From a bacterium (GTDB taxonomy: Bacteria; CLD3; SB21), in NCBI GenBank assembly GCA_013360215.1, contig JABWCP010000007.1:124001-156158 (forward strand): a stretch of 32,158 nucleotides of DNA, written 5' to 3'. Positions 1 to 23,059 of the stretch are shown piece after piece (the first letter of the stretch is position 1; the number at the start of each line of letters is the position of its first letter). A program made the translations under genes and the position numbers. Below the pieces are notes generated by a model. That model did no database searches. It saw only the letters and a list, made by a program, of their open reading frames with translations, and was not told where the DNA came from.

Positions 1-410
1 GCATCCATTACGGCAAGCCACGGCGGATTTTTGTATGAAAAAGCTTCCTGCCGCCCGAGTATGATGCAGTTAACCACAATCAAGGCGATGAACGCGCCAA
101 GTTCTTTATGAATTTTAGGGAAAAAAGCTTCGAGCGATTGATCAACTGCCGTCACAAATGTGGCGATGATCACAATAAAAGTCGTGATGCGTACTTGTTT
201 AGGTATCCAATGACGCAACATGGACACCAAAAGGCATGAGCCTACAAGAACAAATGTAGTGGCCAGTCCCATAGCCAGTCCGTTGATCGCCGAATTGGTA
301 ACGGCGAGGGTAGGGCACATGCCCAGTACGGCAACAAATGTCGGATTTTCTTTCCACAGGCCTTTGATCAATTCGTGTGTTGCGCGTCCGCTTTTTTCAA
401 TCGCGTTCAT
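1..410 (-). CDS. rnfE: Rnf electron transport complex subunit E (5' part; 3' end beyond window)
   Basis: Not in the ORF track. Manual translation from ATG at 410 gives MNAIEKSGRATHELIKGLWKENPTFVAVLGMCPTLAVTNSAINGLAMGLATTFVL...LGAFIALIVVNCIILGRQEAF. LGMCPTLAV and LIVVNCIILGRxE are RnfE/NqrD signature motifs. ATGA overlap with the rnfG stop. Confidence 0.95.
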   Translation of the reverse strand, partial: MNAIEKSGRATHELIKGLWKENPTFVAVLGMCPTLAVTNSAINGLAMGLATTFVLVGSCLLVSMLRHWIPKQVRITTFIVIIATFVTAVDQSLEAFFPKIHKELGAFIALIVVNCIILGRQEAFSYKNPPWLAVMD

Positions 411-1096
411 GGTTGTTTCGGATTATAAGTAAGATTGTTCTGCTGCATGTAATCATCAATGGCGGTTTGCCATCGTGTCATGGCCTTTTGTAAAGCACGA
501 ATAACAGCTTTCGACGATATGGTCGCGCCGGTGATCGTTTCGACCTGATTGGGTTTGGTTTTTTTTCCGGTCTTTGCGGCCTCGATCTCCGGTTCGACCG
601 ACAGCGCTTTAAAATTGGCGACGAAGTTTTTGTCTTTGATGATTTTATCGCCGAGCCCGGGCGTTTCTTTATTTTCGAGCACTTCAAATCCGACGATGAT
701 TTTTCCGTCGGCCTGATACCCGTAAATGATTTTGATCACATCCGCAAAACCGGGTTCCGATGCAGGGATCGCAAAACCGACGACCGATTTTTTTTCATCG
801 TACCCGAGAAATATACGATCGCCCTTTTTGGCTTCTTCGCCCTGCGCTTTTTCAAGACGGTCGTTTTTTAAAACCAATACTTCATAACTGCGGCAACCCG
901 GTACGACGCGATAGATGGCTTCCTGCAGCGCTTCTTCCTTATTCTGCTCGATGATCGGCAGCGTCGAAAAATAAGCGACCACTAAAATCAGTCCTGAAAA
1001 AAATCCGGCCACGGCCAGCGTCAGGATCAAAATCAATGAGCTGGGTTCGGCTTCTTGCGGCGCTACGGGTGTTGCGGGTATATGTTGATGTTCCAT
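407..1096 (-). CDS. rnfG: Rnf complex subunit G, FMN-binding
   Basis: Single N-terminal TM helix, ETPGLG motif, ITGATISS covalent-FMN motif; lies between rnfD and rnfE. Confidence 0.95.
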   Translation of the reverse strand: MEHQHIPATPVAPQEAEPSSLILILTLAVAGFFSGLILVVAYFSTLPIIEQNKEEALQEAIYRVVPGCRSYEVLVLKNDRLEKAQGEEAKKGDRIFLGYDEKKSVVGFAIPASEPGFADVIKIIYGYQADGKIIVGFEVLENKETPGLGDKIIKDKNFVANFKALSVEPEIEAAKTGKKTKPNQVETITGATISSKAVIRALQKAMTRWQTAIDDYMQQNNLTYNPKQP

Positions 1097-1099
1097 AAT

Positions 1100-2059
1100 T
1101 TATTTCGTTCCGTAAACGCGATGGCGCGTAACGCGGTTGATCAACGGCGTTACGGCATTCATCAGCAATATGGCATACATCACGCCCTCCGGTAAACCGC
1201 CGAAGATGCGGATGAGAACTACTAAAATTCCGATTCCGCTTCCGAAAATCCACATGCCGCGCACTGTCATAGGCGACGTCACAGGGTCGGTGGCCATAAA
1301 GACGGCGCCCAGCATCAAACCGCCGGAGAAAAGCATGTGCATCGGTGAAGGATATAAAACCGGGTTGACGATATATAATATACCCGACAGTACGACGGTA
1401 GCAGTCATGATAGAAACCGGGATGTGCCAATTGAAAATTTTTCGATAGGCCAGATATACGCCGGCTAAAAGTATAATCACGCCGCAGGTTTCGCCAAGCG
1501 ACCCGGAGGTATGGCCCAGCATAAGCTGTGATAATTCGGTGGCTTCGTGCTGAAACTTCATACTCGAAAGGGGTGTGGCGCTGGAGATTGCATCTAACGG
1601 TTCGCCGTGAAAAAAAGGCCATGCCAGATTAGTACCCCGCGCGGAAAAATATCGTCCGTCCGGCACCGACCACGTCGTGATCGCCGTGGGAAATGCGGCT
1701 TGCAGAAAAGCACGGCCTACCAATGCAGGATTAAAAATATTTTGTCCGAGCCCGCCCCATATATACTTACCGATCATGATCGCGATCAGTCCGCCGAGAA
1801 ATGCCATCCACATCGGAAAGCCCGGCGGTAAGGTCAATGCCAGCAAAAGTCCGGTCAATAAAGCACTGCCGTCGAAGAGCGATTGGTGACGCGGATTCGA
1901 TCCGGACAAAAGCCATTCGGCAAACATGCATCCGCTCACGGCGGCAACCGACAGTAAAATCACACTCAGTCCGAAAAAATAATACGCGGCTGCCGCGACC
2001 GGCACCAAAGCGTAAATCACTTGACGCATGATCCAAGGCGTCGTCGCTTCGTCATGCAA
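1100..2059 (-). CDS. rnfD: Rnf complex subunit D (true start probably upstream, near 2101)
   Basis: Polytopic membrane protein with GGLGQNIFNPALVGRAFL, SSATPL (FMN-Thr), GSLGET, FMATDPVTSP and EGVMYAILLMN motifs. The conserved N-terminal SPFLH lies in frame upstream of the TTG at 2059. Confidence 0.95.
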   Translation of the reverse strand: MHDEATTPWIMRQVIYALVPVAAAAYYFFGLSVILLSVAAVSGCMFAEWLLSGSNPRHQSLFDGSALLTGLLLALTLPPGFPMWMAFLGGLIAIMIGKYIWGGLGQNIFNPALVGRAFLQAAFPTAITTWSVPDGRYFSARGTNLAWPFFHGEPLDAISSATPLSSMKFQHEATELSQLMLGHTSGSLGETCGVIILLAGVYLAYRKIFNWHIPVSIMTATVVLSGILYIVNPVLYPSPMHMLFSGGLMLGAVFMATDPVTSPMTVRGMWIFGSGIGILVVLIRIFGGLPEGVMYAILLMNAVTPLINRVTRHRVYGTK

Positions 2060-2079: not shown

Positions 2080-3438
2080 TTAATTTGGATTGGGTTTCGA
2101 TGACGCTTTCGCCTTTCTTTCACGTATAGCATTTTTGGCAACCCGAAAACTCTGTACTAAAGGAATTCCCGAAGGACAGACAAACGAACACGACGCGCAT
2201 TCAAAACAATCCATCACGTGCTGTTCTTCCAGTTCATCATACAAATCTTTACGTGAGAGCAGCCCCATGAGGGAAGGATTGAGAAACATCGGGCACACAT
2301 CTATGCAGCGCCCGCACTTGATACATTGGTATGTGGAAAGTTCCTGCACTTCGTTATCTGTCAGGACAAGTACGCCCGAAATGCCTTTGGTTACGGGTAC
2401 ATCCAACGTTTTTTGCGCGATGCCCATCATCGGCCCGCCGAGCAAAATTCGAACGGCATCTTGCGTAACGCCGCCGCACCAATCGATCAGATGGCGAATC
2501 GGTGTACCGATCGGCACCATAAGGTTAGCCGGTTTGCGAATAGCCGGACCGGTCACGGTCACTACGCGCTCAATCAGCGGTACGGCATTTTCAAAATATT
2601 GCGCCAGTGCTACCAACGTACCGACATTGGACACAAGTGCGCCGACATCCAGCGGTAATTTGCCCGACGGCACTTCCGTTCCCAGTACCGCTTTGATCAA
2701 CATTTTTTCTGCGCCCTGAGGATATTTGACCCGGAGCGCTACCACTTCATAATCGCAATTTTGTTTTTTGATTTCTTCTTGCAACGCTGCGATCGCATCC
2801 GGTTTGTTATCTTCCACGCCGATTACGACCCGCTGTGCGGGAACAAAATGTCTGAGTATCGTGAGACCATGGACCAAGTCGGCCGCAAACTCTACCATGA
2901 TGCGATGATCGGATGTAAGAAAAGGTTCGCATTCGCAGCCATTGGCAATGATCGTCGTACAGGTTTTTCCTTCGGGGATGGAAAACTTCACATGCGCGGG
3001 AAATCCGGCGCCGCCAAGGCCTACCAAACCGGCGCTCTGTACAGCGGCGATAAATTCTTTGTGCCCCATATTTTTCCAATCCAGCGGTGGTCGCTGCGGT
3101 ACGGTCTGTGCGCTGTACGGATCGGCTTTGATACGAATAGAGTACACCAGCAATCCGTTGGGATGCTCGCCGAGTTCGATACCCGTGACGGTACCCGTGA
3201 CGGGCGCGTGCTGCGCTACGGATACGAAAGCATCCGGCCTCGCGATCACATCGCCGCGCGTGACGTGTTGGCCTTTTTGTACAAGCGGCACCGACGGTGC
3301 GCCCGCATGCTGCGCAACCGGAACGGCGTATTCTTCAACGAAGGGCATGCGTTCGATCGCAAGATCGGCGGTCTGATCTTTATAAGCTTCGGGATGAATC
3401 CCGTGGCGAAACGTCAATCGTGACGACATGTTTTCCAT
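2080..3438 (-). CDS. rnfC: Rnf complex subunit C (NADH/FMN, 2x[4Fe-4S])
   Basis: FRHGIHP, GLVGLGGAGFP, NGCECEPFLTSD, KYPQGAEK, GGPMMG, CIKCGRCIDVCP and CFECASCSFVCP motifs; short form without a long C-terminal extension. Confidence 0.96.
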   Translation of the reverse strand: MENMSSRLTFRHGIHPEAYKDQTADLAIERMPFVEEYAVPVAQHAGAPSVPLVQKGQHVTRGDVIARPDAFVSVAQHAPVTGTVTGIELGEHPNGLLVYSIRIKADPYSAQTVPQRPPLDWKNMGHKEFIAAVQSAGLVGLGGAGFPAHVKFSIPEGKTCTTIIANGCECEPFLTSDHRIMVEFAADLVHGLTILRHFVPAQRVVIGVEDNKPDAIAALQEEIKKQNCDYEVVALRVKYPQGAEKMLIKAVLGTEVPSGKLPLDVGALVSNVGTLVALAQYFENAVPLIERVVTVTGPAIRKPANLMVPIGTPIRHLIDWCGGVTQDAVRILLGGPMMGIAQKTLDVPVTKGISGVLVLTDNEVQELSTYQCIKCGRCIDVCPMFLNPSLMGLLSRKDLYDELEEQHVMDCFECASCSFVCPSGIPLVQSFRVAKNAIRERKAKASSKPNPN

Positions 3439-6400
3439 TATTGTTTTCCGCTCGCTTGATATCCGGAAAGCGCTAATAACTTATCCCGCAACTTGATGCG
3501 AGTGGATTCCAGATGATTTGATTCCTGTTGTTTCAGTTTGGTCTCATATTCACTACGCAGTGTATCGATGGCCGAATTATGTTTTTCGGACCATTCGGCA
3601 TCCCAATGCGCACGTAATTTGACCGGGTGGGACGAAAGAAGGCCGGCCATTTCGCGAAGTTGTAACCACGCATCATAGACGACCGCACACGTTTCAGCCA
3701 AGATGCCCGATAGTAAATAGAACACGCCTTCGCGTTCATAATACGCGGTATGTTTAGCACGCTCTTCAGCGGAAGCCAACCATGTACGAATATCCAAACT
3801 TCCGGAAGAGGGTTTGCTTACCGGTGAAAAATGCGATTTCCACATCGGCTGAAGCCAGGCCCAGTCGGCAAAGGTCACGTTCTTTTCGGTTACAAAATCC
3901 AATTGATAATCGGGATTGTGATCAAGGTGTAATAATTCAGCCGCTAATTTTTTCTTCGCGTCGGGGATGTAGCGCAACAAAGGAAATACACGGGATTCTA
4001 CGGACATGGCGTACATGTCTTGCAGTTTGAATTTTTCTATCATCATCGGTGTATGCACGCACATCATGGCCGGCGTTTGACTGCGCAGACAAGCTGTAAT
4101 ACTGCGGTACATGTCGGCCGGATAGCCGGGGGATACATGAGCCCACGCTGTTTGACGTTGCGCAAAAAGCATGGCGTTCAATCCCATACGATCGTACATA
4201 TTTTGTTTGCCACCGGTGGCGGGCTCAGTGACGATCCATTTGATCGGCAAGCCGCTATTCATAAGCGCGATGATGTCACCCGCCGGCATGGCATCCAATA
4301 CGGTCGCATCCGTCACTAAAAGCAAAGGCGGTGTAAGATTCTTTTCTTCTTCCGTAAGATCATTCCAAGTGATGGCCGCAATTTGTATATCGTGTTGGGA
4401 CGGCAAATACGCATTTTGTAATTCGAGATCGGCACGCCGTAAAAGTTTGATATTATCAATGATGTGGCGCATTTGCCCGAGGCCGATACCGCGGACGAAG
4501 TCCGGAGCGATGGCTTCTGAAAAAACCATGACCGGCACGAGGAACGGATTATCCGGAAATTGCCGTGCCCATGCCAGAGTATCATTGCCGCTGATTACCG
4601 CCGAATACCGCGCACGTCCGATACCCGTAGGTCCTTTTGTCAAAAGCCAATACAGTTGTTTCAAGTCACGCAGAAGATACACGGCGCGTTCGATCCACAC
4701 CGTATCGACGACGCCAAATCGTTGCGAGGAACCAAGTTTTCCGATCAGGGCATCAAGCGACATGCGTTCCGTGCCGTGTTCGGAAACGGCGGCCAGTAGA
4801 TGTTCGGTACTTTGTGTCGGTAAAGCGTCGCGCAAAATATTTTGCAATTTATCCGTAAGATTTTGGATGCGCTTTTCTATCGCGGACGTGTGCGTAAGCA
4901 TACGTGCCTGTGCCGTCGCTTCGACAGCGGCCGTGATCAGGTGCAACGCGATTTTTTCCGCCGGTTGGTCCGTGCGTCGGTTGCCGAGTTGCGTCATATA
5001 ATAATGACGGCTCAGAAATAAGGCGGCCAGCGGATTGTAACTTTCGTTATCTAAATATTGTTTGACCGTGGCTCCGGGCGTATCCGGCAGCGCTTCCCAA
5101 ATCCGGTACGAAGCTTGTAACTGCGCTTCCGACGCCGGATTCACGGGCTGCATGCTAAGGGCTTGTTCTGAACACGATGCAGCACAAATGCCGCATCCAT
5201 TGCAAGCATGCGGATCTACGGCCAATGAAAAAATCAAGCCGCTGCCTTTAGCATACTGTTCCGGTGTTTTGAAAAATGTTTTGGTAATCACAGCCGGAAG
5301 CGGGGCAAGATATTGAGCGACGTCGTTCGCTTGCGCGATCAAATTTTCTTTTTTGGATGAATCCATTTTCATCTGCACGGCCAGTTTTTCGGCGGCCACA
5401 GGAAGCAGGTCGCATAACGATGGGTTGTTCTCTGATACCATCGGATGCAACAGTTTGGCGAGATTTTTGATTACCGGCGGAGTCATTTCTGTCAGCGATT
5501 TTCCGGCCCGTATCGTTTGTTCGACTGCCGACTGTACGAGCGTCTCTGTCGAAAGAGCTACCATCGGCAGAGCGGATTCAGGGCAATATACGGCACATTG
5601 GCCGCAACCGGTGCATGACTCCGATTTTAACACCGGATACATCGCCCGTTGTGCTGTGGCATTGTGAAACGCCGACGTCGCCGAGGGTATGACCGGTAAG
5701 GCATGAAACGGATCGGCCGTCATGGCTTTAGTTTGACCGGACTCTGTAAAAAATCCGACACGATCATAAAATGAAGCCACACGTGAATACGGTGCGCCAC
5801 GATCTTCGTAACGGCGTACGATACCGGGAATGTCAGGCGAAGTCGCAATCATTGTTTTGGCTGATTCGTCGAGTCCTATCGAACGCGCATTCAAATCCGG
5901 AAATTCGCGATGCAGGTTTTGAAAATGAATTTGTTGTTTCGGATACGAGGACTTGGTTCCGGTAAAATCAAGTTGTATAAAAAACTGACGGCGTCCGCCC
6001 GTGCGCATGTGTTCATAAATATTCGCGACTGTTTTTTCCGGCATGTCATAAACGTCCGTGCCAAATTGACCGGAAAACAAAACAGGTTTTTCACGTTCAT
6101 TGATTGACGGATATTCCGGGTACGGCGGCGATTTTTTTTGCCCGGCATTTTCGCCGGCTTTTTGTAATGCCGATATCGTTTCGCGATATAACGGTCCCTC
6201 CTGAACAAATCCTCCGGACAGAGGTTCAAGTACGGCCACATTTTTTTTACCACTGATGGCCTCGCAAACTGCGGTACCGGGAAAAGGCTGCCACACGCGG
6301 ATATTCGCTACACCGGCTTTTATTTTGGCTATTTTGAGTTGTTCTGCGCCGGACCGAAGTGCGGCAATGACAGCGCCTCCGGAGAGGATGAGCTGTTCGG

Positions 6401-7220
6401 CTTTTTCTGAACCTAAAGTTTCGACGCTTTTATATGGACGACCAAACTGTGTTTGAAATTGGTCCCACGCGGCATCGATGATCGGTGCGGCCGCTTCGGA
6501 GAAATACACGCCGCCGGCCGCCGCTTCAAACGCATGCATCAGACCGGATTTATCGGCGCCCAACATAACCGGATAGTCGCTATGAAACCAGTTGGTGATA
6601 CGCCGCCGCATTTTTCCGAAAATTATTTTTTGTCCGGATGTCGGTGTTTCGATCATATCATCGGGATCGCCAAGATAAGTGCGTAAGGCTTCTTCATTTG
6701 GAAAAGTAACATGGCCCGCCGATGAGTTTGTCATATCGGCTAAAACCATTACCGGAATCATCGTCAGTTCGGCTATACGATGCGCCGCTATGATCATATC
6801 GGCCAATTCCTGATGGTTTGCCGCTATCAATTGTATCCATCCGGCTTCACGGGCCAAACGACGTACTCGTGTATCGCAAAACGATCCTTCTCCGTTTTCA
6901 TTTTGTTCACGTTCAAATGCCACGAGTACTACGGGCAAATGACGACGAACGCAGGCGTGCATCATTTCTGTATCTTGAAGGAGCGCCTGAAGTGTAACTG
7001 TTGCAGAGGCGCGAATACCCGAAGAAGCCAATCCCATCGCCTGCCCAAGATTGCGGGCCGATACGTGCAGTAGCGGTCTTCCGAAAATATTTTGCCCGCT
7101 TTCGTCGTGACCGGAAGCCGTCTCCGTCAAAGCCGATGCGATGATATCAAAACACGCCGCCGCCGTCGTGGTGTTGGTCAAACCGGCGTAAAGAGTATAA
7201 TTGTTCTTATTGTGCATCAT
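3438..7220 (-). CDS. Pyruvate:ferredoxin oxidoreductase (NifJ/PFOR)-derived protein with two [4Fe-4S] motifs, catalytic motifs degenerate
   Basis: PFOR-like segments (AMGLASSGIRAS, GWIQLIAANHQELADMIIAAHRIAE, NIRVWQPFP, AEKIALHL, SVESRVFPLLRYIP) plus CTGCGQCAVYCP and CNGCGICAASC. No YPITP, no CxGC, no GDG..N TPP motif. Start overlaps the rnfB stop (ATGA) and stop overlaps the rnfC start (TAATG). Confidence 0.8.
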   Translation of the reverse strand: MMHNKNNYTLYAGLTNTTTAAACFDIIASALTETASGHDESGQNIFGRPLLHVSARNLGQAMGLASSGIRASATVTLQALLQDTEMMHACVRRHLPVVLVAFEREQNENGEGSFCDTRVRRLAREAGWIQLIAANHQELADMIIAAHRIAELTMIPVMVLADMTNSSAGHVTFPNEEALRTYLGDPDDMIETPTSGQKIIFGKMRRRITNWFHSDYPVMLGADKSGLMHAFEAAAGGVYFSEAAAPIIDAAWDQFQTQFGRPYKSVETLGSEKAEQLILSGGAVIAALRSGAEQLKIAKIKAGVANIRVWQPFPGTAVCEAISGKKNVAVLEPLSGGFVQEGPLYRETISALQKAGENAGQKKSPPYPEYPSINEREKPVLFSGQFGTDVYDMPEKTVANIYEHMRTGGRRQFFIQLDFTGTKSSYPKQQIHFQNLHREFPDLNARSIGLDESAKTMIATSPDIPGIVRRYEDRGAPYSRVASFYDRVGFFTESGQTKAMTADPFHALPVIPSATSAFHNATAQRAMYPVLKSESCTGCGQCAVYCPESALPMVALSTETLVQSAVEQTIRAGKSLTEMTPPVIKNLAKLLHPMVSENNPSLCDLLPVAAEKLAVQMKMDSSKKENLIAQANDVAQYLAPLPAVITKTFFKTPEQYAKGSGLIFSLAVDPHACNGCGICAASCSEQALSMQPVNPASEAQLQASYRIWEALPDTPGATVKQYLDNESYNPLAALFLSRHYYMTQLGNRRTDQPAEKIALHLITAAVEATAQARMLTHTSAIEKRIQNLTDKLQNILRDALPTQSTEHLLAAVSEHGTERMSLDALIGKLGSSQRFGVVDTVWIERAVYLLRDLKQLYWLLTKGPTGIGRARYSAVISGNDTLAWARQFPDNPFLVPVMVFSEAIAPDFVRGIGLGQMRHIIDNIKLLRRADLELQNAYLPSQHDIQIAAITWNDLTEEEKNLTPPLLLVTDATVLDAMPAGDIIALMNSGLPIKWIVTEPATGGKQNMYDRMGLNAMLFAQRQTAWAHVSPGYPADMYRSITACLRSQTPAMMCVHTPMMIEKFKLQDMYAMSVESRVFPLLRYIPDAKKKLAAELLHLDHNPDYQLDFVTEKNVTFADWAWLQPMWKSHFSPVSKPSSGSLDIRTWLASAEERAKHTAYYEREGVFYLLSGILAETCAVVYDAWLQLREMAGLLSSHPVKLRAHWDAEWSEKHNSAIDTLRSEYETKLKQQESNHLESTRIKLRDKLLALSGYQASGKQ

Positions 7221-8089
7221 AGTTCCTCAGGTAAAACTTCCACACGCCCTATCGGTAGCGGCGTTGCAGGCGCTTTTTCAAATTGACGGCCTTCCACCCA
7301 CACGATGGCTCGTGTCGGGCAACGGCGCGTCGCGTCGGGGCGCGCTAATACATTTTGACTATAATCAATCACGGGCAAATTATTCTTCATCTGGATCAAA
7401 CCCGGCGCTGCATCGGCCACACACCGGGAGCACGCATTGCAAGCTACCGAACACCGTTCCAATGCGGCATCGCCCTCAAGCAGTGAACGGCACTGTACGA
7501 TCAGTTTCTGACTGACGGGCATGATGGTAAAAAGTTTTTTGGGGCATACATCCACACAATCGTTGCACGCCGTGCACTGGATGGGATCGACGACCGGTAG
7601 ACCGTCGCTATTCATCGTGATCGCGTCAAAATCGCAGACCGATTCGCAATCTCCGAGACCTAAACATCCCCATACACAATCTTTCGTTCCGCCGGTAACC
7701 ATCGCTACACTGCGGCAGGTGCGTTTTCCATAATAGTCGGCCTGGTTGTGGCTTTCTTGTTTTCCACCGGCACATAAAAGACGTGCTACGCGTTTTTCTT
7801 CAAAGCCGGCGGCCACACCGAGGAATTCCGCGATTGATGCTACCGCCGAAGGTGAACTGACGGTACACTTGCCCGGTTTATTGATGCCGCCGACGACACT
7901 TTCTGCAAATGCACGGCAACCCGGGCGACCGCATGCGCCGCAGTTGGAACCCGGTAACATAGATTCGACCTGATCAATGCGCGGATCTTCTTCGACACGC
8001 AGCTTTTTATACGCGAACGCCAGTACCGATGCGAAAAGCAGCCCGAGCCCGACCATGATCGTTACAGCTATGATGATTTCGGAAAACAC
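7217..8089 (-). CDS. rnfB: Rnf complex subunit B (polyferredoxin)
   Basis: GTG start, N-terminal membrane anchor, LPGSNCGACGRPGC FeS domain, CVWGCLGLGDCESVCDFDAI, CTACNDCVDVCP and further Cys motifs. Confidence 0.94.
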   Translation of the reverse strand: MFSEIIIAVTIMVGLGLLFASVLAFAYKKLRVEEDPRIDQVESMLPGSNCGACGRPGCRAFAESVVGGINKPGKCTVSSPSAVASIAEFLGVAAGFEEKRVARLLCAGGKQESHNQADYYGKRTCRSVAMVTGGTKDCVWGCLGLGDCESVCDFDAITMNSDGLPVVDPIQCTACNDCVDVCPKKLFTIMPVSQKLIVQCRSLLEGDAALERCSVACNACSRCVADAAPGLIQMKNNLPVIDYSQNVLARPDATRRCPTRAIVWVEGRQFEKAPATPLPIGRVEVLPEEL

Positions 8090-8118: not shown

Positions 8119-10650
8119 TTAGTTAAAAACGGCAGCCCGCTGGATCAACGCATCCAATCCGTCTTCCGAAAGATTGAGCGGTAATCCGGGGTGAATACAT
8201 TTAGCCGGACATTTCTCAGCCGCTTGCACGATATGCAAATAACTTCCGGCACGGGCGTCGCCGATATACGCTTGTTTAGCGCTGTTATACTTAAAAATAT
8301 TCGGATTCAGGTTGATGCATTCATTACAACTTGTACAACGTATCGTTTCAAGCCAAGCTTCGTTGGATATGACCGGTTCTTCCTCCACCGGTGCAGAAAC
8401 CGTCGGTGTATCGGACACCGTAGCCGATGTTTCAGCTTTGGACACACTTAAAGAGGGTACGGATGAAGGCGTGTTGTGCACAGGCAAAGTATCCAGATCC
8501 AACAGCACCGCTGATAATTTTTCCATCGCACTGCGCGCGGTTTCTTCACGCACTTTTTCAATTTCACTTTGATGAAGCGCATGCAGCGCGTCCAGTGCCC
8601 GTTCTTTTTCAGCCGTCATTTCAGTTCGGGTTTTTGCAATCGCCCGCGCAACGTGATAACTGTTGATGCCGCCGAATTCCTGAATAAAATGCCATGCATC
8701 CAGACGATCCTGCGCCATCAATACGAGCGCATGATCAACCGCCGTTTTGTGTAAAATCCCGTCTTTATCGGCGGTCCACACATAAGGGATTTTGGTATAT
8801 GCTTCCGATGGAGGCAGCGCGAGATAATCCGCGAGTAAAACAAGATCCGGTGTCCAGTGCGAAGGCGGCACATCCATGAAGTGATGCGTCATCGTGTCAT
8901 CCAACACAAGATGATCGGCAAACGTGAAAGGCAATCGCAGCAAGGTTTCGGTTTTATCATATTGCGTGGCGGTCAATTCATACACCGGCCAGTCGCTGTC
9001 AGCTTGGGGATTGGCTTCCACACTAAATCGGCTGCCCCATTGAACGCCGCGTTGCGGATCGTAGGAATATTCGGGGAAAGCGCGGCTTTCTAATGCGGAA
9101 CCCGATGCCAGCAGTGCGTGTTCCGATACCGGTGCCAACATATAAAACAACGATGGTGCCGATTGAGACAATCCGGTGCGGATACCGTGAAACACTTGCT
9201 CGGGATGAACCATCGCGGCCTGATACACATACGCCTGGCGATGTGCGACCGCCATCGCGGCCAGATCATGAGCAAATGAGATAACACCTGTCGGCGCCGC
9301 TTGGTCACTGTGGTATCGTGATTGCATGACAAAAAATTTGATCGGACGCCGCGAAGCTAAGGCTGTCGAAAAATCATGAAGATGGTCACGCAGGATTTCT
9401 TCATCCGAAGCTAAAACGACGACCGGCGCACACAAAGCCACCTCCTCATCGCTCAATGCACGCCAGTCAAATTTTTCAAAATACACATCGTGTACGTCGG
9501 CCTCATAACGATCTTGCGATTCAAGTTGCGCGATGCGTTTGGCACGAACCCACGAGGTCATCGTTTGCATGTACGCATCAAACTGCGCTTCGGCCAATCG
9601 CAGCGCCTCTGCACTGGGTGCTATGGATATCCGTGCGGAGGTCATGGTGTCGGTCCATGTCATACCGTAACGCGCTTCGATGTCCGGCGTGACGATAAGT
9701 AATGCCGATTCTTTGAAAACAGTATCAGGCTGGCTGAGTATCGCCAAAGCTTCAGTTATCCGCTTGCGGCGTGCCGGTGCCATCGGCAAGGTCGGTGATG
9801 CCGGCAAAACGCGTGATACCGCGGTAAAATCAACAAACGCACTGCCGTAACCATGATTGCGGGATGCGGCCGATGAATTTTTTGCTTCAGGATTTCTGTG
9901 GTCTTCGATGAGAATCATTTCTTGCAACCGCTGACGCAAAACAGCGGCGTCTTTGAGAAGCCGGGTACGTGCATCCGCGACACGATGACGGAGCGCCGAT
10001 GAAAGCAATGTAAGCGCCATAGCTTTCGAAAAATCATACAAGTGCCCGTCCTTGGGCAAATGATCTTTCAGATGCTTTGCGTCCGATAAAAAAGATTTTT
10101 CTGTTTCGCCTTTGAGATGCAATTGTTCGGTAAGTCGCGTGACCGCTGTTTCCCAGATCGCAGTACATGCTGCGGTGCCGCCGTTTTCACTCAGATATTG
10201 GCGAATCATTTGTTCTAACCGCAGCCGGTTGTCTTTGAGTATTTTGGCATCGTCCGCACCCGGTGCAAAGGATACTATCGCGTCCTCCAAAAGTTGATTT
10301 AGCGTGCGAACGGATTTCGCGTCATCCGATGAAACGGCAATCCAAACGGGATAATCAAACCGAATGCGATCGGTATCGCGGAATGGTAAGAGCAATGCCG
10401 GCAACCGGTTTTTGGCGATCGCGCCGGAGGCGTCACCGCGATAAAACGCACGGAGATTTTTCCAGAACAGTGACGTCTGCGAAGGGTCTGCCGCTTTGGA
10501 TTCCGGGATAAATGGTTTCGCCGCTTTTTCGGATTTTTGTTCCGCACGGGTATGGTCTTGCGTACCGTGCGTCGACGTGTTTCGCAACACGTGATCGAGA
10601 TGGGCAAACATAGGATCAGGGCTCGTCATGGGAGCTTCCTCATTTTTCAT
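8119..10650 (-). CDS. Large ferredoxin-domain protein with a degenerate PFOR C-terminal-like region
   Basis: C-terminal CTSCNECINLNP...AAEKCPAKCIHPG single-cluster ferredoxin. The central region parallels the C-terminal part of the 1260-aa ORF (FDWRALSDEEVALCAPVVVL...ALASRRPIKFFV; ALESRAFPEYSYDP; FTFADHL). An alternative start, ATG at 10629, has a GAGGAAG SD-like sequence upstream. Confidence 0.8.
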   Translation of the reverse strand: MKNEEAPMTSPDPMFAHLDHVLRNTSTHGTQDHTRAEQKSEKAAKPFIPESKAADPSQTSLFWKNLRAFYRGDASGAIAKNRLPALLLPFRDTDRIRFDYPVWIAVSSDDAKSVRTLNQLLEDAIVSFAPGADDAKILKDNRLRLEQMIRQYLSENGGTAACTAIWETAVTRLTEQLHLKGETEKSFLSDAKHLKDHLPKDGHLYDFSKAMALTLLSSALRHRVADARTRLLKDAAVLRQRLQEMILIEDHRNPEAKNSSAASRNHGYGSAFVDFTAVSRVLPASPTLPMAPARRKRITEALAILSQPDTVFKESALLIVTPDIEARYGMTWTDTMTSARISIAPSAEALRLAEAQFDAYMQTMTSWVRAKRIAQLESQDRYEADVHDVYFEKFDWRALSDEEVALCAPVVVLASDEEILRDHLHDFSTALASRRPIKFFVMQSRYHSDQAAPTGVISFAHDLAAMAVAHRQAYVYQAAMVHPEQVFHGIRTGLSQSAPSLFYMLAPVSEHALLASGSALESRAFPEYSYDPQRGVQWGSRFSVEANPQADSDWPVYELTATQYDKTETLLRLPFTFADHLVLDDTMTHHFMDVPPSHWTPDLVLLADYLALPPSEAYTKIPYVWTADKDGILHKTAVDHALVLMAQDRLDAWHFIQEFGGINSYHVARAIAKTRTEMTAEKERALDALHALHQSEIEKVREETARSAMEKLSAVLLDLDTLPVHNTPSSVPSLSVSKAETSATVSDTPTVSAPVEEEPVISNEAWLETIRCTSCNECINLNPNIFKYNSAKQAYIGDARAGSYLHIVQAAEKCPAKCIHPGLPLNLSEDGLDALIQRAAVFN

Positions 10651-10660
10651 AAAATTTCAA

Positions 10661-10679
10661 ACCGCAAATTTGTCTAATT
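10661..10679. repeat. 19-bp direct repeat, left copy (duplicated korB 3' end)
   Basis: ACCGCAAATTTGTCTAATT, identical to 14303-14321. On the minus strand it falls within ...IISRKLDKFAV*, compared with the korB end ...AIHKELDKFAV*. Confidence 0.9.
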
Positions 10680-10718
10680 TTCTGCTAATGATTTTTTCTT
10701 GTTGTTTAACACTTGAAT

Positions 10719-13415
10719 TTATTTTATGAGGGTCATTTTTTTTGACTGAACGAAATTACCAGCTTGTATTCTATAAATATAAATTCCGCTAGCAACCTGC
10801 ATACCTACATCATCTTTACCATCCCAAAAGGAATCATAATATCCTGCTTCAAGAAAGTGACCAAACACCGTACGCACCTCTTGCCCTTGCATATTATAAA
10901 TTTTAAGAGTCACGTTAGACGCCCCGGGTATTCCAAATGAAATAGTTGTCGAAGGGTTGAAAGGATTAGGATAATTTTGGTCTAATTCAAACTTTGAAGG
11001 AGTGAAGTTTACTTTTGTTTTTGATTTTGCTAAGCAAGGTAACGCGTTGGAGTTATTTGCAATAGCCAAAGGTTCATCGCATCCACCGCCGCCGCCTGAA
11101 CATACAGAAACTGGTGTGCTTGTTGAAATGGTTTGTGAGCCGCTGGACATGGTTAATGTCAAAGTAAAATCATAACTAACCTGTAAAGAAATAGATGCAC
11201 TTGTACCAAGAATAGCACCATTGCGAGTCCATTGATACGAATTCGTTCCAGTACCGCCGGAAACAACAGCCGAGAAACTCCCTATCTGACCTTTGTTTAC
11301 ACAGGAAGGGCCTTCGATATAAGTAGACAAAGGAAGGTAATACTCACCTGAGTATTCAACTTGTGGTCTTGAATTCCCCGCTGTATTAAACGCAACTACT
11401 ACATAACTTTGCTTACCAACTAGATAAGTACTGTCAGTCCAAGACGTCACATTTGTACCAACCGACCCGATTAAGCTGTAGCCATTTAGAGTACCATCCC
11501 ATACTGAATTTGTGGCTTTTCTATAAATACGAAACCCTTGTTCTTGATTCTCTATTATATCAAACCAATATATACCATAAGTATATTCGCTCGGGCAAGT
11601 ATTATCATTCCAACTCAAAGTACGCGAATTAGGAGAGCCTGATACTGATAGTGAAGTTGGGGTTGACGGGAGTGCAGAACCGGATTTCAGGATCAATGAA
11701 TTATATAATGCATTTATGGATGGGTGATACTTTGATTCCGTTGAATTAATTAGTGCATTCCTATATGCCTCAATGTGAGTGTCCCCAATTAATTGGCCTA
11801 AGACATTGTAACGACTGATAAATTTACTAATTAAAAACGCAGCAGACAATGATATATCATCATTATCCCCTGTGTAATTGGGTGCTCTTAGTCCATTACC
11901 ATCCCAAAGACTATAAAAAAAGCAAGCAACAGCGCCCTCGACTTTTTTATTGTTTCTATCTGGAAATAGTATTCCTTGAGAATAATCCATAAATTGATAA
12001 GTCGGTGACGGTCCTGCTTCTACATCGTAACTGCCCCGTTCAGGAAGTGATGGCTGTTCGACTGAATACCAGTACATGTGGGTGGCAGCAGCATAAAACT
12101 CAGCCCAGCCTTCATTCCAGGCTAATGTATTGTTTGTCTCTTTTGAGAACCAGTGTGAACTGGAATAATTGGCATCAGCTATAAAGCCGACACGGTCATA
12201 TTCTATAAAATGCCCATATTCATGATAAGCGGTTTCCGTCCTTGGCGATACATCAAAAACAATGCGCGGTGCATTGATGTTTTGACCGCCGCAATTTCCT
12301 GGTTGACAGAAAAACGCGCCATCAACATTCCTAAAGTAATAACGAACCTGATGTGGCGTATAATTTAACTGAGCTATGCTAAATTGGCGAGCTCTGTATA
12401 AATGACGAAGAGCGCTACCTTGTTTATCATTAGTTTCGAGATCACGAGCAGCAATGACCGACGTAGTCGCACCGGAGATGTCAATCTTGACAGAATTTGA
12501 AATAAGTGGTACCATTTTAGCGCCGTTTCCAAGATCGGCATCATAACCTGCTGCGTTCGCGTTGTTTGCGTAAACACGTATTCTTTGAGAATAGTAGTTG
12601 GCCGGCTGTGAACTTGCAAACGTAAAGCTGAAATAGTAGTAGCCATTGTTATCACTGATATCGTAGTCAACGTGCAGCGTGTTTCCTCCATAATATGGCG
12701 TATAACCGGTTGTTAGATTATCATCATAGTCCCAATCCAGATAGACTCCGACCGCTGGAATTCCTTTCATGCCATAAGGGTAATAAGGATGGTTGTATTT
12801 TATTTGCCCGGAAATCTGAACGGTGATATAATATGTTGATTCGGTCATCTCTTGGTTTTGAATTTTTTGACCAATACCTCCGTTTTTAAATGTGGTATCC
12901 ATTGGAATATACGAAGCAGTAGCTTTCTGTTCATTCTCAGACCTATTAACTTCTATAGGCCATTGGGTATACTTGATACTTGGCTTAGTATCATAATTTG
13001 TAACTTCGCCATTTAAGATTTCAATGTAGATTTCAAAACTCTGATATTCAGAGAGTCTATTTTTTTCAGATTCATCATTAGCCGGTTTGAAATGTAATTT
13101 GATTTGAAGGGTGAAATAGCCGTCCTCTGCAAAACTGAATTCCCATTTCTTAATAAATTGTTCAAATTTGTTTTTTCGACCTTCACTTGATTTCATGATG
13201 CCGCTTTTCAAAATAAAAGATTCAGGTATACTAAAATCGACGCCTACGTCACCGCTTGCTTCCATATTGAGCGACAGGTCAATCGAAGCTTGTTTTTTGT
13301 TATGAGAAAGTTTCAAATCGTTAAGTTTAAATGGGCTTTTAGTGTCTTCAGATGCGTAGGTTAGTTTGAATCCAAATAATGCAATAAGAAAAATTAATTT
13401 CATAATTCGGGACAT
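10719..13415 (-). CDS. Secreted putative zinc metallopeptidase (HEXXH) with FN3/Ig-like domains and C-terminal FlgD-Ig/T9SS-type sorting domain
   Basis: Signal peptide; AYHEYGHF followed by WNEGWAEFY (gluzincin-type third ligand); FN3-like PSTPTSLSV..LSWNDN..GFRIYRK..YVVVAFNTAGNS; C-terminal LDQNYPNPFNPSTTI..WDGKDD.G..VASGIYIYR..KKMTLIK; AAGGAG SD. Confidence 0.8.
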   Translation of the reverse strand: MSRIMKLIFLIALFGFKLTYASEDTKSPFKLNDLKLSHNKKQASIDLSLNMEASGDVGVDFSIPESFILKSGIMKSSEGRKNKFEQFIKKWEFSFAEDGYFTLQIKLHFKPANDESEKNRLSEYQSFEIYIEILNGEVTNYDTKPSIKYTQWPIEVNRSENEQKATASYIPMDTTFKNGGIGQKIQNQEMTESTYYITVQISGQIKYNHPYYPYGMKGIPAVGVYLDWDYDDNLTTGYTPYYGGNTLHVDYDISDNNGYYYFSFTFASSQPANYYSQRIRVYANNANAAGYDADLGNGAKMVPLISNSVKIDISGATTSVIAARDLETNDKQGSALRHLYRARQFSIAQLNYTPHQVRYYFRNVDGAFFCQPGNCGGQNINAPRIVFDVSPRTETAYHEYGHFIEYDRVGFIADANYSSSHWFSKETNNTLAWNEGWAEFYAAATHMYWYSVEQPSLPERGSYDVEAGPSPTYQFMDYSQGILFPDRNNKKVEGAVACFFYSLWDGNGLRAPNYTGDNDDISLSAAFLISKFISRYNVLGQLIGDTHIEAYRNALINSTESKYHPSINALYNSLILKSGSALPSTPTSLSVSGSPNSRTLSWNDNTCPSEYTYGIYWFDIIENQEQGFRIYRKATNSVWDGTLNGYSLIGSVGTNVTSWTDSTYLVGKQSYVVVAFNTAGNSRPQVEYSGEYYLPLSTYIEGPSCVNKGQIGSFSAVVSGGTGTNSYQWTRNGAILGTSASISLQVSYDFTLTLTMSSGSQTISTSTPVSVCSGGGGGCDEPLAIANNSNALPCLAKSKTKVNFTPSKFELDQNYPNPFNPSTTISFGIPGASNVTLKIYNMQGQEVRTVFGHFLEAGYYDSFWDGKDDVGMQVASGIYIYRIQAGNFVQSKKMTLIK

Positions 13416-13432
13416 AATGAATCTCCTTAATC

Positions 13433-13945
13433 CTATTTATATGGTTTAACAAGACAATCACTAGGCACTCCGTCATCGACAGGTCCAAACTTTGAACGGG
13501 TTTCCACCGAATTGACGAGATAGTATTGCAGACTGTCTATAACATACAGCGAATCCATTCGGAATAGAAAACATGCCAAGATTCGTAAATTGGTAGCATC
13601 GCCTAGGTCTATGATTTTCCACATCTGTTCATATACAGAATCCTTTTCAAAGACAACTTCTCCGTACGTAATATGACTTACAGAGTCGGAACCCAAAGTA
13701 TCTAAGAACGGGGAAGTAATAATAATACTTCCTGCTGAAAGCATAATTATTCCTTTTCCATCAAAAGCGGGCTTGATGCGCGTTTTAACTGTAATTGTGT
13801 CGCCAACTTTAATGCTATCGACATTGCAGTTTATTTGTAGGCTCCCGGTTTCAAACACACTAGGACCTGAATAGGGTTCCGGTTCATCTTTATGATTACA
13901 TGAAATAATCGCATAAGAAAATAAGAAAAGAATTAGCGTTTTCAT
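13433..13945 (-). CDS. Putative lipoprotein, unknown function
   Basis: MKTLILFLFSYAIISC lipoprotein-type signal, purine-rich SD, 17 bp from the next gene on the same strand. Confidence 0.75.
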   Translation of the reverse strand: MKTLILFLFSYAIISCNHKDEPEPYSGPSVFETGSLQINCNVDSIKVGDTITVKTRIKPAFDGKGIIMLSAGSIIITSPFLDTLGSDSVSHITYGEVVFEKDSVYEQMWKIIDLGDATNLRILACFLFRMDSLYVIDSLQYYLVNSVETRSKFGPVDDGVPSDCLVKPYK

Positions 13946-13957
13946 TTTCCCCCTTTT

Positions 13958-14218
13958 CTATTGGTTGATTGATTCGGTTTTTTTTGTATTACTCCATTTC
14001 ATATCTCGTTGTAGCGCTTTGGCCGAGGTTTGATTTTGCTCATTGGGAGGTACGTGATACCAATCTAAGTTCTCTACTCTTGCTGATTCAGCAGTGCTAT
14101 CTGGAAAGCCCCCACAATCCAAACAATCTTCTTCTGTACATGAGAAGTTTGGTGAAAATACGAACAAAAATGAAAGCAAAACAAAAAAACATAGCATAAA
14201 ACCTTTATACGTCATCAT
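13958..14218 (-). CDS. Small putative lipoprotein/exported Cys-containing protein
   Basis: Hydrophobic N-terminus then FSCTEEDCLDCGG; tightly packed (12 bp) and co-oriented with the 170-aa lipoprotein gene. Confidence 0.5.
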   Translation of the reverse strand: MMTYKGFMLCFFVLLSFLFVFSPNFSCTEEDCLDCGGFPDSTAESARVENLDWYHVPPNEQNQTSAKALQRDMKWSNTKKTESINQ

Positions 14219-14298
14219 AAAATTTACTCCAAATTTTCTTACGCTATTTATATCGAATCAAATATATTCTAACTGAAGAATTTGAAATAACATTTCAT

Positions 14299-15252
14299 TT
14301 ACACCGCAAATTTGTCTAATTCCTTGTGGATCGCGCGCATTTTGTCCTCCGGTGAAATGCCGAGATTGTGCGCACCGTAATCATCATACCGTTCGGCGTT
14401 CTTATTCTGATACAAAAGGCCGATCACTTCGCGGTCATGATTGCCCGCCAAAGTTCTGGCCTGATTGATATCCGACGGATCATGCTCGACCACGTTTTTA
14501 TATATTTTTGTGATCGCGGGGTCAACTTGAATTCCGTTTTTATGCGTCAAAAGTGTGATCGCATCGGGACTGCTCATGGTTGTCTGAAAAAGATCTTTTT
14601 GGAAAACCGGGCAACGTTGTAAAACGCGGATAAACGACAAACCGGGATGATTGTAACCGGCTTCGATCGTAGCGTACAGATGCGCCGGATTCCAATCTAC
14701 CGTCTGTGCGACGAAGGAAACATTGGAGACGCCGAGCGTGGTTTGTATCGGATTGATCGGAGGTAATTGCGATCCGCGCGGTGAGGTATTGGAAACTGTA
14801 CCTTTATTGGAAGTCGGTGAAGCTTGTCCTTTGGTCAATCCATAAATTTCGTTGTCCAGAAGCAGCACGGTGATATTCATATTATAGCGAATGGCGTGAA
14901 TCCAATGCGCCGTACCGATGGAGCAACAATCGCCGTCGCCGGTGGCGACAAACACATGCAGATCCGGACGGCGAAATTTGATACCATTGGCTACGGGAAG
15001 TGCACGGCCGTGCAAACCGTGAAATCCGTAGGTTTTCATATAATGCGGCAGACGGCTCGAACAGCCGATGCCGGACACAAATACTGTTTTTTCGGGCGGT
15101 AATTGTTTTTCGCTGCACAGTCTTTGTACAGCGGTCAAAATGCCGTGATCGCCGCATCCCGGACACCAGCGTGCCGTTGCGCTTTCATAGTCGGCTAACG
15201 TGTAATAATCCTCAGGTATATCGAGGACGCAATCGGATTTTAATCCAAACAC
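14299..15252 (-). CDS. korB: 2-oxoacid:ferredoxin oxidoreductase beta subunit (TPP-binding); substrate not determinable
   Basis: WCPGCGD, SGIGCSSR, HGLHGRALP, GDGD...LDNEIYGLTKGQASPT and QRCP motifs; GTG start with AAGGAG SD. Confidence 0.93.
   Translation of the reverse strand: MFGLKSDCVLDIPEDYYTLADYESATARWCPGCGDHGILTAVQRLCSEKQLPPEKTVFVSGIGCSSRLPHYMKTYGFHGLHGRALPVANGIKFRRPDLHVFVATGDGDCCSIGTAHWIHAIRYNMNITVLLLDNEIYGLTKGQASPTSNKGTVSNTSPRGSQLPPINPIQTTLGVSNVSFVAQTVDWNPAHLYATIEAGYNHPGLSFIRVLQRCPVFQKDLFQTTMSSPDAITLLTHKNGIQVDPAITKIYKNVVEHDPSDINQARTLAGNHDREVIGLLYQNKNAERYDDYGAHNLGISPEDKMRAIHKELDKFAV
14303..14321. repeat. 19-bp direct repeat, right copy (within the korB 3' end)
   Basis: ACCGCAAATTTGTCTAATT, identical to 10661-10679. 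Confidence 0.9.
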
Positions 15253-19838: not shown

Positions 19839-21746
<1,908 letters not shown>

Positions 21747-21965: not shown

Positions 21966-23054
21966 ATGAATAAACCCGATCGCAAATTCTGGATCATAGT
22001 AGCCGCGGCTTGGTTGCTTTTGGGTTTGCTCTACAGCATACAATCCTACCATTATCGCGTCACCATCGGTCGTCCCGGTGATTTGCTACCGTTACTTATC
22101 AACGATATAGGCTTTTTTTTCCTATGGGCGTTGTTTAGCGTTCCCGTCATTCGATGGATTTTGCACTGGCCGATTCTTCGGAGCAACTGGCAACGTCGGT
22201 TACCCGTTTTTTTAATGGCCGGTTTAGTCATCGCCTTTTCTCAAAAGGGATTGTATGATGCTTTTTTGCTGGTTGCATACAGTGAAACGACACAGGGTTT
22301 TCCTTGGGAACGTTGGTACCGCTCGGTGATCGGTTCTTTTGAACTCGGTTTTTTCATTTACGTATCCATGATCTTTGTTGTGCATACGTGGATTTATCAT
22401 GTCAACCTACAGCGTGAGCAACTGGATGCCGCCGCTTTGCGCGAACGATTATCACAGATCCGTTTGCAGGTTTTACAAAGTCAACTGCAGCCGCATTTTC
22501 TTTTTAATACGCTAAATACGATTTCCGGACTTATTGACGTTCGTCCTGCGGATGCAAAACTGACGCTTGGCCGACTGGGAGAATTGCTTCGCATGTCGCT
22601 GGAATCGGATCAGTTAACCGAAGTAACACTTCAACGTGAATTAGATTTTTCGCAAGTGTATATGGCTATCCAGACAACCCGTTTCGGCGATCGTCTGACT
22701 TATAAATGTACCGTAGATTCCGCGATGCACGGGGTGTTGGTTCCGACGATGATGTTACAGCCTTTGCTGGAAAATGCCGTGACGCACGGTGTGTCGAAAG
22801 TTCCCGGCGCCCATACGATTGAGTTGAAATCATGGCGTGATGGGGATACGTTGTGTTTGGACATAAATAATAGCTTTGAAGCTACGGCCAATCCGGAACA
22901 AACACCGGGACTGGGCATCGGTCTTACCAATATCCGTGAACGTCTCCGGCAATTGTACGGTGAGAAGGCTAAGTGTGAACTGGCGGTGCATGCACACGGT
23001 GCGCACGTTACGATCAGGATGCCGTGGCGCACCTCCGACGGGAACCAAGGATAA
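21966..23054 (+). CDS. LytS/YehU-type membrane sensor histidine kinase
   Basis: About 4 TM helices, then QLQPHFLFNTLN H-box, LQPLLENAVTHG N-box and GIGLTNIRERL G-box. Confidence 0.93.
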   Translation: MNKPDRKFWIIVAAAWLLLGLLYSIQSYHYRVTIGRPGDLLPLLINDIGFFFLWALFSVPVIRWILHWPILRSNWQRRLPVFLMAGLVIAFSQKGLYDAFLLVAYSETTQGFPWERWYRSVIGSFELGFFIYVSMIFVVHTWIYHVNLQREQLDAAALRERLSQIRLQVLQSQLQPHFLFNTLNTISGLIDVRPADAKLTLGRLGELLRMSLESDQLTEVTLQRELDFSQVYMAIQTTRFGDRLTYKCTVDSAMHGVLVPTMMLQPLLENAVTHGVSKVPGAHTIELKSWRDGDTLCLDINNSFEATANPEQTPGLGIGLTNIRERLRQLYGEKAKCELAVHAHGAHVTIRMPWRTSDGNQG

Positions 23055-23059
23055 TATCT

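Follow-up and report, generated by a model that had tools for sequence, protein, structure and literature searches.

The stretch of DNA analysed here (the window: 32,158 nucleotides, GenBank assembly GCA_013360215.1, contig JABWCP010000007.1, positions 124,001 to 156,158) carries on its minus strand an operon of ten genes in the order korA-korB-P20-rnfB-PFL-rnfCDGE. It combines genes for the ion-translocating Rnf complex with korAB, the two subunits of a 2-oxoacid:ferredoxin oxidoreductase, and with two large genes, PFL and P20, whose products resemble pyruvate:ferredoxin oxidoreductase (PFOR). PFL, listed in public records as '4Fe-4S binding protein', lies between rnfB and rnfC, and P20 lies between korB and rnfB. 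Our results confirm that PFL is a PFOR-like protein that has lost its catalytic motifs; the interpretation given in a preceding sequence-only reading is supported in part and is widened here to a pseudo-PFOR that was built into an Rnf operon together with KorAB. The parts of PFL are listed below; TPP denotes thiamine pyrophosphate, pLDDT is the predicted local distance difference test score and pTM the predicted TM-score.

3438..7220, minus strand: PFL, PFOR-like pseudoenzyme of 1260 aa; ATG start, no internal stop
6141..7181, minus strand: PFL domains I and II (residues ~14-360), YPITP and TPP-activating Glu lost, fold retained (Pfam POR_N and PFOR_II; alignment; model pLDDT 86.9, 2c3y_B E 1.4e-23)
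5121..5663, minus strand: PFL domain V (residues ~520-700), two CxxCxxCxxxC motifs (536-546, 673-683) flanking a helical insert (Pfam, alignment, model)
3639..5123, minus strand: PFL part that resembles domain VI (residues 700-1194), with the fold of a TPP domain but neither GDG...N nor the four Cys of the proximal cluster, and with a helical insert of ~100 residues (profile against PDB; model)
3468..3629, minus strand: long C-terminal helix of PFL (residues ~1198-1251) with a conserved KLRDKLLxLSG ending (model helix 499-552; consensus)

Lost motifs and predicted fold of PFL

The Pfam matches of PFL are POR_N (61-180), PFOR_II (274-355) and two Fer4 motifs, and the same scan detected no POR (domain III, PF01558), EKR or TPP_enzyme_C (PF02775) domain. 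Against the NCBIfam PFOR equivalog TIGR02176 the protein scored 98.6 bits, below the cut-off of 911.35, and no family beyond PFOR parts and Fer4 was found in Pfam or NCBIfam. Comparison with RnfA, B, C, D, E and G gave generic Fer4 similarity to the RnfB and RnfC models alone. Sequence alignment to PDB entries was limited to domains I-II (1b0p 23-353) and the two ferredoxin motifs. Homology searches with PFL returned the near-identical cluster P0002 (97%), followed by proteins of 1374-1681 aa at 25-30% identity, some of which bear PF01558, PF02775 and a C-terminal Fer4_13 domain.

Motifs were mapped by BLASTP and in a 24-sequence alignment that included intact relatives. The sequence-only reading of the window had quoted strings of PFL as replacements of catalytic PFOR motifs; these strings are present and fall exactly on the catalytic motifs of the intact relatives, which, in the comparison that this reading had proposed with homologues retaining GDG, keep the motifs where PFL has lost them. 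GGDGACxGCGEK of the intact enzymes stands opposite LGNRRTDQPAEK in PFL, NSTGC(T/S)SVW opposite ISGNDTLAW, and GGDGA(M/L)YDIG...DTQVYSNTGGQ opposite VTDATVLDAM...VTEPATGG, with the SNTGGQ stretch deleted. The fourth Cys of the proximal cluster (CxPEHG) lies opposite MMIEKF, and all four proximal positions are occupied by residues other than Cys. YPITP and the TPP-activating Glu of EGEH, kept in 6 of 6 intact relatives, correspond to gapped or substituted stretches in PFL and in all 28 dead PFLs. The reported absence of domain III was confirmed by the lack of a Pfam match and by a clade-specific hidden Markov model (HMM) made from the intact relatives, which scored 350-414 bits on six intact and 37-219 bits on three half-degenerate relatives, was weak on three distant dead PFLs and did not match the PFL of the window.

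Both ferredoxin motifs of domain V are retained, as had been claimed: all eight Cys (C536/539/542/546 and C673/676/679/683) are present and invariant in 35 of 35 aligned homologues. The insert of more than 100 aa described between them measures 126 residues, but it is a trait of the whole clade. As a mark of repurposing this long insert was rejected because intact relatives bear the same insert, which is ancestral to the clade. The description of an uninterrupted reading frame that overlaps both neighbours also holds, with 1260 codons, a start codon that overlaps the TGA of rnfB as ATGA and a TAA that overlaps the ATG of rnfC as TAATG.

AlphaFold2 models of PFL were built from 35-sequence alignments. 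The model of residues 1-720 (pLDDT 86.9, pTM 0.74) had its best Foldseek matches in the PFORs of Desulfovibrio africanus and Moorella thermoacetica (2c3y_B/6cio; 2c3y_B E 1.4e-23, TMq 0.58-0.60). Within the model of residues 700-1260 (pLDDT 84.1, pTM 0.77), model residues 1-495 were superimposed by VIA-align onto 7plm_A 773-1169 with Z 22.8 and an rmsd of 3.3 over 315 residues, and the alignment onto 6cin_B 770-1170 reached Z 20.9. Among the Foldseek matches listed for this model, 24 of 24 at E<=0.001 were chains of the 2-oxoacid:ferredoxin oxidoreductase (OFOR) family, and a sequence profile of the C-terminal half likewise matched PFOR domain VI (6cin 963-1109, E 6e-15). Left unaligned were a terminal helix of 54 residues and the long helices that separate the two lost cluster motifs (54-100 and 106-162 of the model). 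By the profile and structure alignment suggested in the sequence-only reading, the ligands of TPP and of the proximal cluster are lost and the fold matches 7plm_A and 2c3y_B. With every tested motif lost and the fold kept, the classification of PFL as a pseudoenzyme for TPP chemistry is supported. Judged by its sequence, PFL should be unable to bind TPP or a proximal cluster, and it has no recognisable CoA domain; the models predict a protein shaped like a PFOR from which the active site has gone, together with the wire's first cluster.

P20, conservation and origin

P20 represents a second dead member of the same clade and comprises two features:

8119..10650, minus strand: P20 (843 aa), a dead paralogue that corresponds to a giant Rnf-embedded PFOR from domain IV to its end, the C-terminal half (BLASTP, hhalign)
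8122..8367, minus strand: C-terminal single-cluster ferredoxin domain Fer4_13 of P20, after a Ser/Thr/Pro-rich linker of ~45 residues (PF13370, E 2e-8)

Fer4_13 is the sole Pfam match of P20. By BLASTP, P20 shares 31% identity with the C-terminal half of the intact giant PFOR P0004 (E 3e-78), and in hhalign its profile matched that of the intact clade with probability 100 and E 9e-121 (P20 53-857 to 732-1660). P20 has no Cys at the cluster positions of domain V and its GDG is replaced; the four Cys of its ferredoxin domain (C772, C775, C778 and C814) show no exchange in any of 25 aligned sequences. A P20 homologue from a distant genome (L052:2990-7399) has 1470 aa, the size of a full-length PFOR, again with C-terminal Fer4_13 as sole Pfam match, as expected if P20 began as a full-length copy.

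An orthologue of PFL with ~40% identity occurs in 10 of the 14 other genomes of the window's family, and the 11 of 15 family genomes with a true rnfC (above cut-off) are exactly the 11 that contain PFL. A scan of species-representative genomes with the family-only alignment as query found 29 loci, in records labelled Bacteroidota, Saprospiraceae, Lewinellaceae, Haliscomenobacter and Phaeodactylibacter. In a sample of 401 genomes there were 25 carriers of PFL, 14 of them outside the family, and rnfC was present in 183 genomes, including 24 of the 25 carriers. At E<=1e-30 the clade comprises 1663 representatives among 1.84 billion. Across many families, PFL proteins that share 25-40% identity are still encoded by open frames.

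Gene maps were drawn for 35 loci with a dead PFL, the window included. The adjacent upstream gene is rnfB in 30 of 32 assessable loci; at L051 the frame is broken, yet rnfB is adjacent by tblastn, and at L061 an insert of 3.9 kb with a restriction-modification system separates rnfB from PFL. Genes for an EcoRV-type restriction endonuclease and a D12 adenine methyltransferase, along with an ATP-grasp gene, occupy L061:14012-17103 there. Downstream, rnfC is adjacent in 27 of 31 assessable loci (exceptions L029, L051, L060 and L061). P20 lies upstream of rnfB in 31/31 and korB plus korA upstream of P20 in 28/28 assessable loci.

PFL is under purifying selection, which is supported by dN/dS ratios determined with the Nei-Gojobori method (NG86) on six orthologous operon pairs. 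The values were 0.11-0.17 for PFL and 0.12-0.19 for P20, compared with 0.01-0.09 for rnfB, rnfC, rnfD, korA and korB, except for korB with 0.158 in the pair L034/L035, of which L035 is a frameshift-ridden assembly. Two of the six pairs are saturated (dS >1), and the pairs with dS between 0.1 and 0.6 agree. Together with frames that are intact in most of the 35 loci, these ratios bear out the earlier argument for selection rather than decay. Conservation is spread over the full length of PFL and peaks in two kinds of site, the Fe-S motifs and FG..RRR..W..D.P (201-217).

PFL groups with the clade of giant Rnf-embedded PFORs by its position between rnfB and rnfC, by the clade-specific inserts in domains V and VI and by phylogeny. 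The tree was built with LG+G4 in 'quick' mode, a setting that is less reliable where branches are long. It unites 32 dead PFLs in one group (SH-aLRT 99) and 26 P20s in another (SH-aLRT 100); an approximately unbiased (AU) test of P20 and the dead PFLs as sister groups gave p-AU 0.56. Because intact giant PFORs fill the same slot between rnfB and rnfC in other phyla, the best explanation for PFL is that it descends, with loss of catalysis, from a giant PFOR whose gene already stood in this place.

Three states of the clade were distinguished. The six loci with a fully intact PFOR have no P20, and the PFOR carries its own C-terminal Fer4_13 in three of them, is cut by a contig end in one and is without this domain in two. 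An intermediate state, in which the TPP site is lost and three clusters are kept, was found at three loci, all with Fer4_13 (3/3). In the fully dead state, represented by 28 full-length PFLs, Fer4_13 is present in 0/28, and P20 accompanies all of them and carries this domain. Of 8 assessable loci with an intact or intermediate form, 7 have its gene between rnfB and rnfC. The exception, L057, has an intact member of 1724 aa with Fer4_13 directly after korAB and no rnf gene within 5.6 kb downstream; its genome (G343) is outside the set with rnfC. The half-degenerate members (L054, L056 and L058) retain the four Cys of the proximal cluster and the C-terminal ferredoxin domain and have lost YPITP, the activating Glu and the SNTGGQ part; according to the tree they arose at least twice inside intact groups. 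All three states are still extant, from the intact form through the half-dead one, which has lost TPP but not its three clusters, to the fully dead one, and the clade thus provides an example of pseudoenzyme evolution.

Other genes of the operon and the window

The remaining genes of the operon are predicted to encode KorAB with intact motifs and ordinary Rnf subunits:

15296..17203, minus strand: korA, alpha subunit of a 2-oxoacid:ferredoxin oxidoreductase of the two-subunit type, made up of domains III, I and II and with intact catalytic motifs (Pfam POR, POR_N, PFOR_II; TIGR03710 522 bits, above cut-off; YPITP at residue 261)
14299..15252, minus strand: korB, beta subunit with the TPP-binding domain VI, a single [4Fe-4S] site and intact motifs (Pfam TPP_enzyme_C, PFO_beta_C; CPGC 30-33, GIGCSS 64, GDG 105, C214)
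7217..8089, minus strand: rnfB, membrane-anchored polyferredoxin subunit of Rnf (Pfam FeS and Fer4; NCBIfam rnfB; 9eri_B E 5e-62, 7zc6_B; N-terminal hydrophobic segment)
2080..3438, minus strand: rnfC (TIGR01945 520 bits; 9eri_C E 2e-109)
1100..2059, minus strand: rnfD (TIGR01946 324 bits)
407..1096, minus strand: rnfG (TIGR01947 108 bits)
3..410, minus strand: rnfE, running off the end of the window; rnfA is next in related loci (NCBIfam rnfE/RsxE; related gene maps)

The best solved relative of KorB is 6n2n_B, a single-cluster 2-oxoglutarate:ferredoxin oxidoreductase (E 1e-49). One membrane segment is predicted in RnfB and none in PFL or P20. RNA libraries of three studies yielded contigs that overlap portions of PFL, P20, rnfB, rnfC and korAB. 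In the window, Rfam at the gathering threshold and ARAGORN gave no match; promoter and terminator scans remained near the shuffle expectation and were not used.

Between korB and P20 the window contains an insert of low GC content (10661..14298, 39-42%), while at other loci korB is directly followed by P20. The insert encodes an 898-aa protein with a type IX secretion system (T9SS) sorting tail (10719..13415) and a 170-aa open reading frame (ORF) without family (13433..13945). One RNA-library contig (run X20) joins position 10660 to 14303, as if it came from a related strain without the insert. An FG-GAP/ASPIC repeat protein of 918 aa (23939..26695) has a FlgD_ig-type tail as in the protein of the insert. 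thiC, for thiamine pyrimidine synthase, is located at 19842..21746, ~12 kb from the TPP-less PFL, and no TPP riboswitch reached the Rfam gathering score in the window. A LytTR-type two-component pair, consisting of a histidine kinase and a response regulator, is encoded at 21966..23794, and an integrase-core (rve) ORF lies near the end of the window (31451..32116). The genome belongs to a phylum-level group of 20 genomes, and the public records of close relatives are labelled Bacteroidota. DNA of the window was found in activated-sludge metagenomes of several studies.

Proposed function and known systems

We consider it rather probable that PFL is an Fe-S adaptor without catalytic activity that connects KorAB with Rnf. 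The Rnf complex is normally regarded as dependent on a free ferredoxin pool. Since the neighbours of PFL are rnfB and rnfC, its main partner would be the Rnf pump, and PFL, P20, KorAB and Rnf may work together. Excerpts from a 2026 PFOR review describe KorAB-type enzymes as lacking domain V and having one cluster (PMC13768988), so that KorAB, which itself lacks a ferredoxin domain, would need an external acceptor. The operon offers two candidates, namely the pair of predicted clusters in domain V of PFL and the ferredoxin that P20 carries on a flexible linker, with RnfB as the acceptor module. Electrons might thereby pass between KorAB and RnfB via built-in or tethered clusters instead of the free ferredoxin pool, and PFL and P20 could be the remains of an Rnf-docked PFOR dimer, kept as frame and wire once catalysis had moved to KorAB. 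The net reaction would be 2-oxoacid + CoA + NAD+ <-> acyl-CoA + CO2 + NADH, coupled to ion translocation and possible in either direction. That PFL relays electrons or binds a partner is suggested by gene order and the conserved Cys; we also infer the occupancy of the clusters, the physical association of the proteins, the path and direction of the electrons and the substrate of KorAB. The sequence-only reading had likewise proposed a repurposed, non-catalytic protein with catalysis delegated to KorAB, and this interpretation is partly supported by the pseudoenzyme character, the purifying selection and the intact KorAB encoded in the same operon (28/28), whereas it had missed the context, namely the Rnf genes as neighbours, P20 and the origin from intact giant PFORs.

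A bolder version of this proposal, towards which we are inclined to be sceptical, is that KorAB, P20, PFL and RnfBCDGEA constitute one membrane-bound, ferredoxin-free, ion-translocating 2-oxoglutarate:NAD+ oxidoreductase. Running backwards, such a complex could act as a CO2-fixing 2-oxoglutarate synthase driven by NADH and the ion gradient in oxygen-exposed bacteria; the two dead PFOR paralogues would replace the ancestral homodimer as docking frame, and the leashed ferredoxin domain would be the only mobile carrier.

Several observations weigh against a function of PFL as adaptor between KorAB and Rnf. Loss of the proximal cluster deprives the clusters in domain V of PFL of an internal donor, and one homologue (P0016) is devoid of the ferredoxin Cys. 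Compared with the neighbouring Rnf and Kor genes, PFL and P20 have evolved 3 to 10 times faster, and the six dN/dS pairs are all from loci other than the window. At L060 the PFL gene has one in-frame TAA, and at L051 it is split over three frames, in an assembly in which rnfE is broken too. The contigs from RNA libraries were not counted as proof of expression, as such libraries can hold DNA and the contigs are without transcript ends. The genome of the window also encodes the E1 subunit of 2-oxoglutarate dehydrogenase (sucA) and a canonical, motif-complete PFOR, and the operon would therefore provide an additional route and not the sole one.

Rather unlikely, in our estimation, is that PFL, with P20, forms a soluble polyferredoxin-like carrier that shuttles between KorAB and RnfB by transient encounters and without a stable complex. 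The lack of membrane segments in both proteins, the conserved Fe-S Cys, evolution faster than that of the core subunits and the operon linkage, which fits equally well, would be in line with a carrier. However, a scaffold of 1260 residues that is conserved throughout is costly for two clusters, the start/stop overlaps with rnfB and rnfC suggest matched synthesis, and the linker-borne ferredoxin of P20 already supplies a mobile element. We give slightly less credit still to a role of PFL as structural, assembly or regulatory factor off the main electron path, in which the clusters sense redox state or oxygen or stabilise the fold. The invariance of the eight Cys over deep divergence speaks against such a role, as does the consistent transfer of the ferredoxin domain to P20, which points to retained electron transfer; on the other hand, the loss of the proximal cluster and active site has cut the ancestral internal path, and the carriers appear to be aerobic or facultative, given the presence of sucA and the activated-sludge source.

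It is much more doubtful that PFL has remained an enzyme, with another cofactor or chemistry in place of the TPP-dependent oxidation of 2-oxoacids. The fold, which is retained in full along with the cleft that lies between domains I and VI, and clade-specific conserved residues such as the motif at 201-217 might be taken as hints of an active site, but no conserved polar cluster has taken the place of the lost motifs, and the aligned motif positions vary freely among orthologues. The RRR motif is common to intact relatives and hence does not mark a new active site, and the family searches returned nothing besides PFOR parts and Fer4. A decaying pseudogene that is still open by chance, to which the relaxed rate relative to the neighbours and the two broken frames might point, is hardly credible in view of the low dN/dS, the conserved operon, the confidently predicted fold, the 1663 representatives of the clade and the open frames across divergent families.

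If the adaptor function of PFL is correct, there would be a conserved variant of Rnf that possesses a 2-oxoacid oxidoreductase and two large pseudoenzyme subunits of its own, and with it an unrecognised coupling of central carbon metabolism to an ion gradient. By textbook potentials, the 2-oxoglutarate/succinyl-CoA couple lies ~200 mV below NAD+/NADH, and this energy is lost by 2-oxoglutarate dehydrogenase; it could be conserved via the operon. Public records label members of the clade as '4Fe-4S binding protein' or 'pyruvate-ferredoxin/flavodoxin oxidoreductase', and metabolic models that take the dead form as PFOR would err.

We found no paper on a dead PFOR-like variant in rnf operons; the intact layout alone is in print (PMC4287430). 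Excerpts from a 2025 Rnf/Nqr review (PMC12174285) and from the 2026 PFOR review (PMC13768988) contain no mention of a PFOR-like Rnf component or a dead PFOR. In an excerpt from a further paper, a 'PFOR-like' gene falls in expression together with korAB (PMC11636981), its identity with the PFL clade being unchecked. The solved Rnf structures 9ERI, 7ZC6 and 8AHX contain no PFOR-like subunit, and the RnfB, C, D, G and E proteins of the window are ordinary members of the RnfABCDGE type represented by these structures from Acetobacterium woodii, Clostridium tetanomorphum and Azotobacter vinelandii, respectively. Accessory Rnf subunits have a precedent, because the complex of A. vinelandii has an extra cytoplasmic subunit, RnfH, described as without cofactor in the 2025 review excerpts (PMC12174285). 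Unlike the cofactor-free RnfH, PFL and P20 are very large and have Fe-S motifs.

KorAB of the operon is of the same type as the two-subunit 2-oxoglutarate:ferredoxin oxidoreductase of Magnetococcus marinus (6N2N). Unlike 6N2N, it is always followed by P20-rnfB-PFL, and it represents a partner enzyme distinct from PFL. With the single-chain homodimeric PFORs of D. africanus (1B0P/2C3Y/7PLM) and M. thermoacetica (6CIN), PFL shares the fold and order of domains I, II, V and VI and two CxxCxxCxxxC motifs in domain V. In contrast to these enzymes, PFL is without YPITP, the activating Glu, GDG...N, the Cys of the proximal cluster, domain III and the EKR domain, and it has extra helical inserts in domains V and VI, a long C-terminal helix and a gene inside an rnf operon. 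Further counterparts are the giant PFORs whose genes lie between rnfB and rnfC, as they do in the Solemya velum symbiont (rnf2 operon) and at L022, L062, L059 and L064; they share clade, slot and inserts with PFL. For the symbiont, the 'Rnf complexes' passage of a 2014 genome paper reports PFOR genes between rnfB2 and rnfC2 and suggests pyruvate as donor (PMC4287430). These giant PFORs keep the catalytic motifs and domain III, and often a C-terminal Fer4_13, all of which PFL has lost, and relative to their rnf operons the operon of the window adds P20 and korAB.

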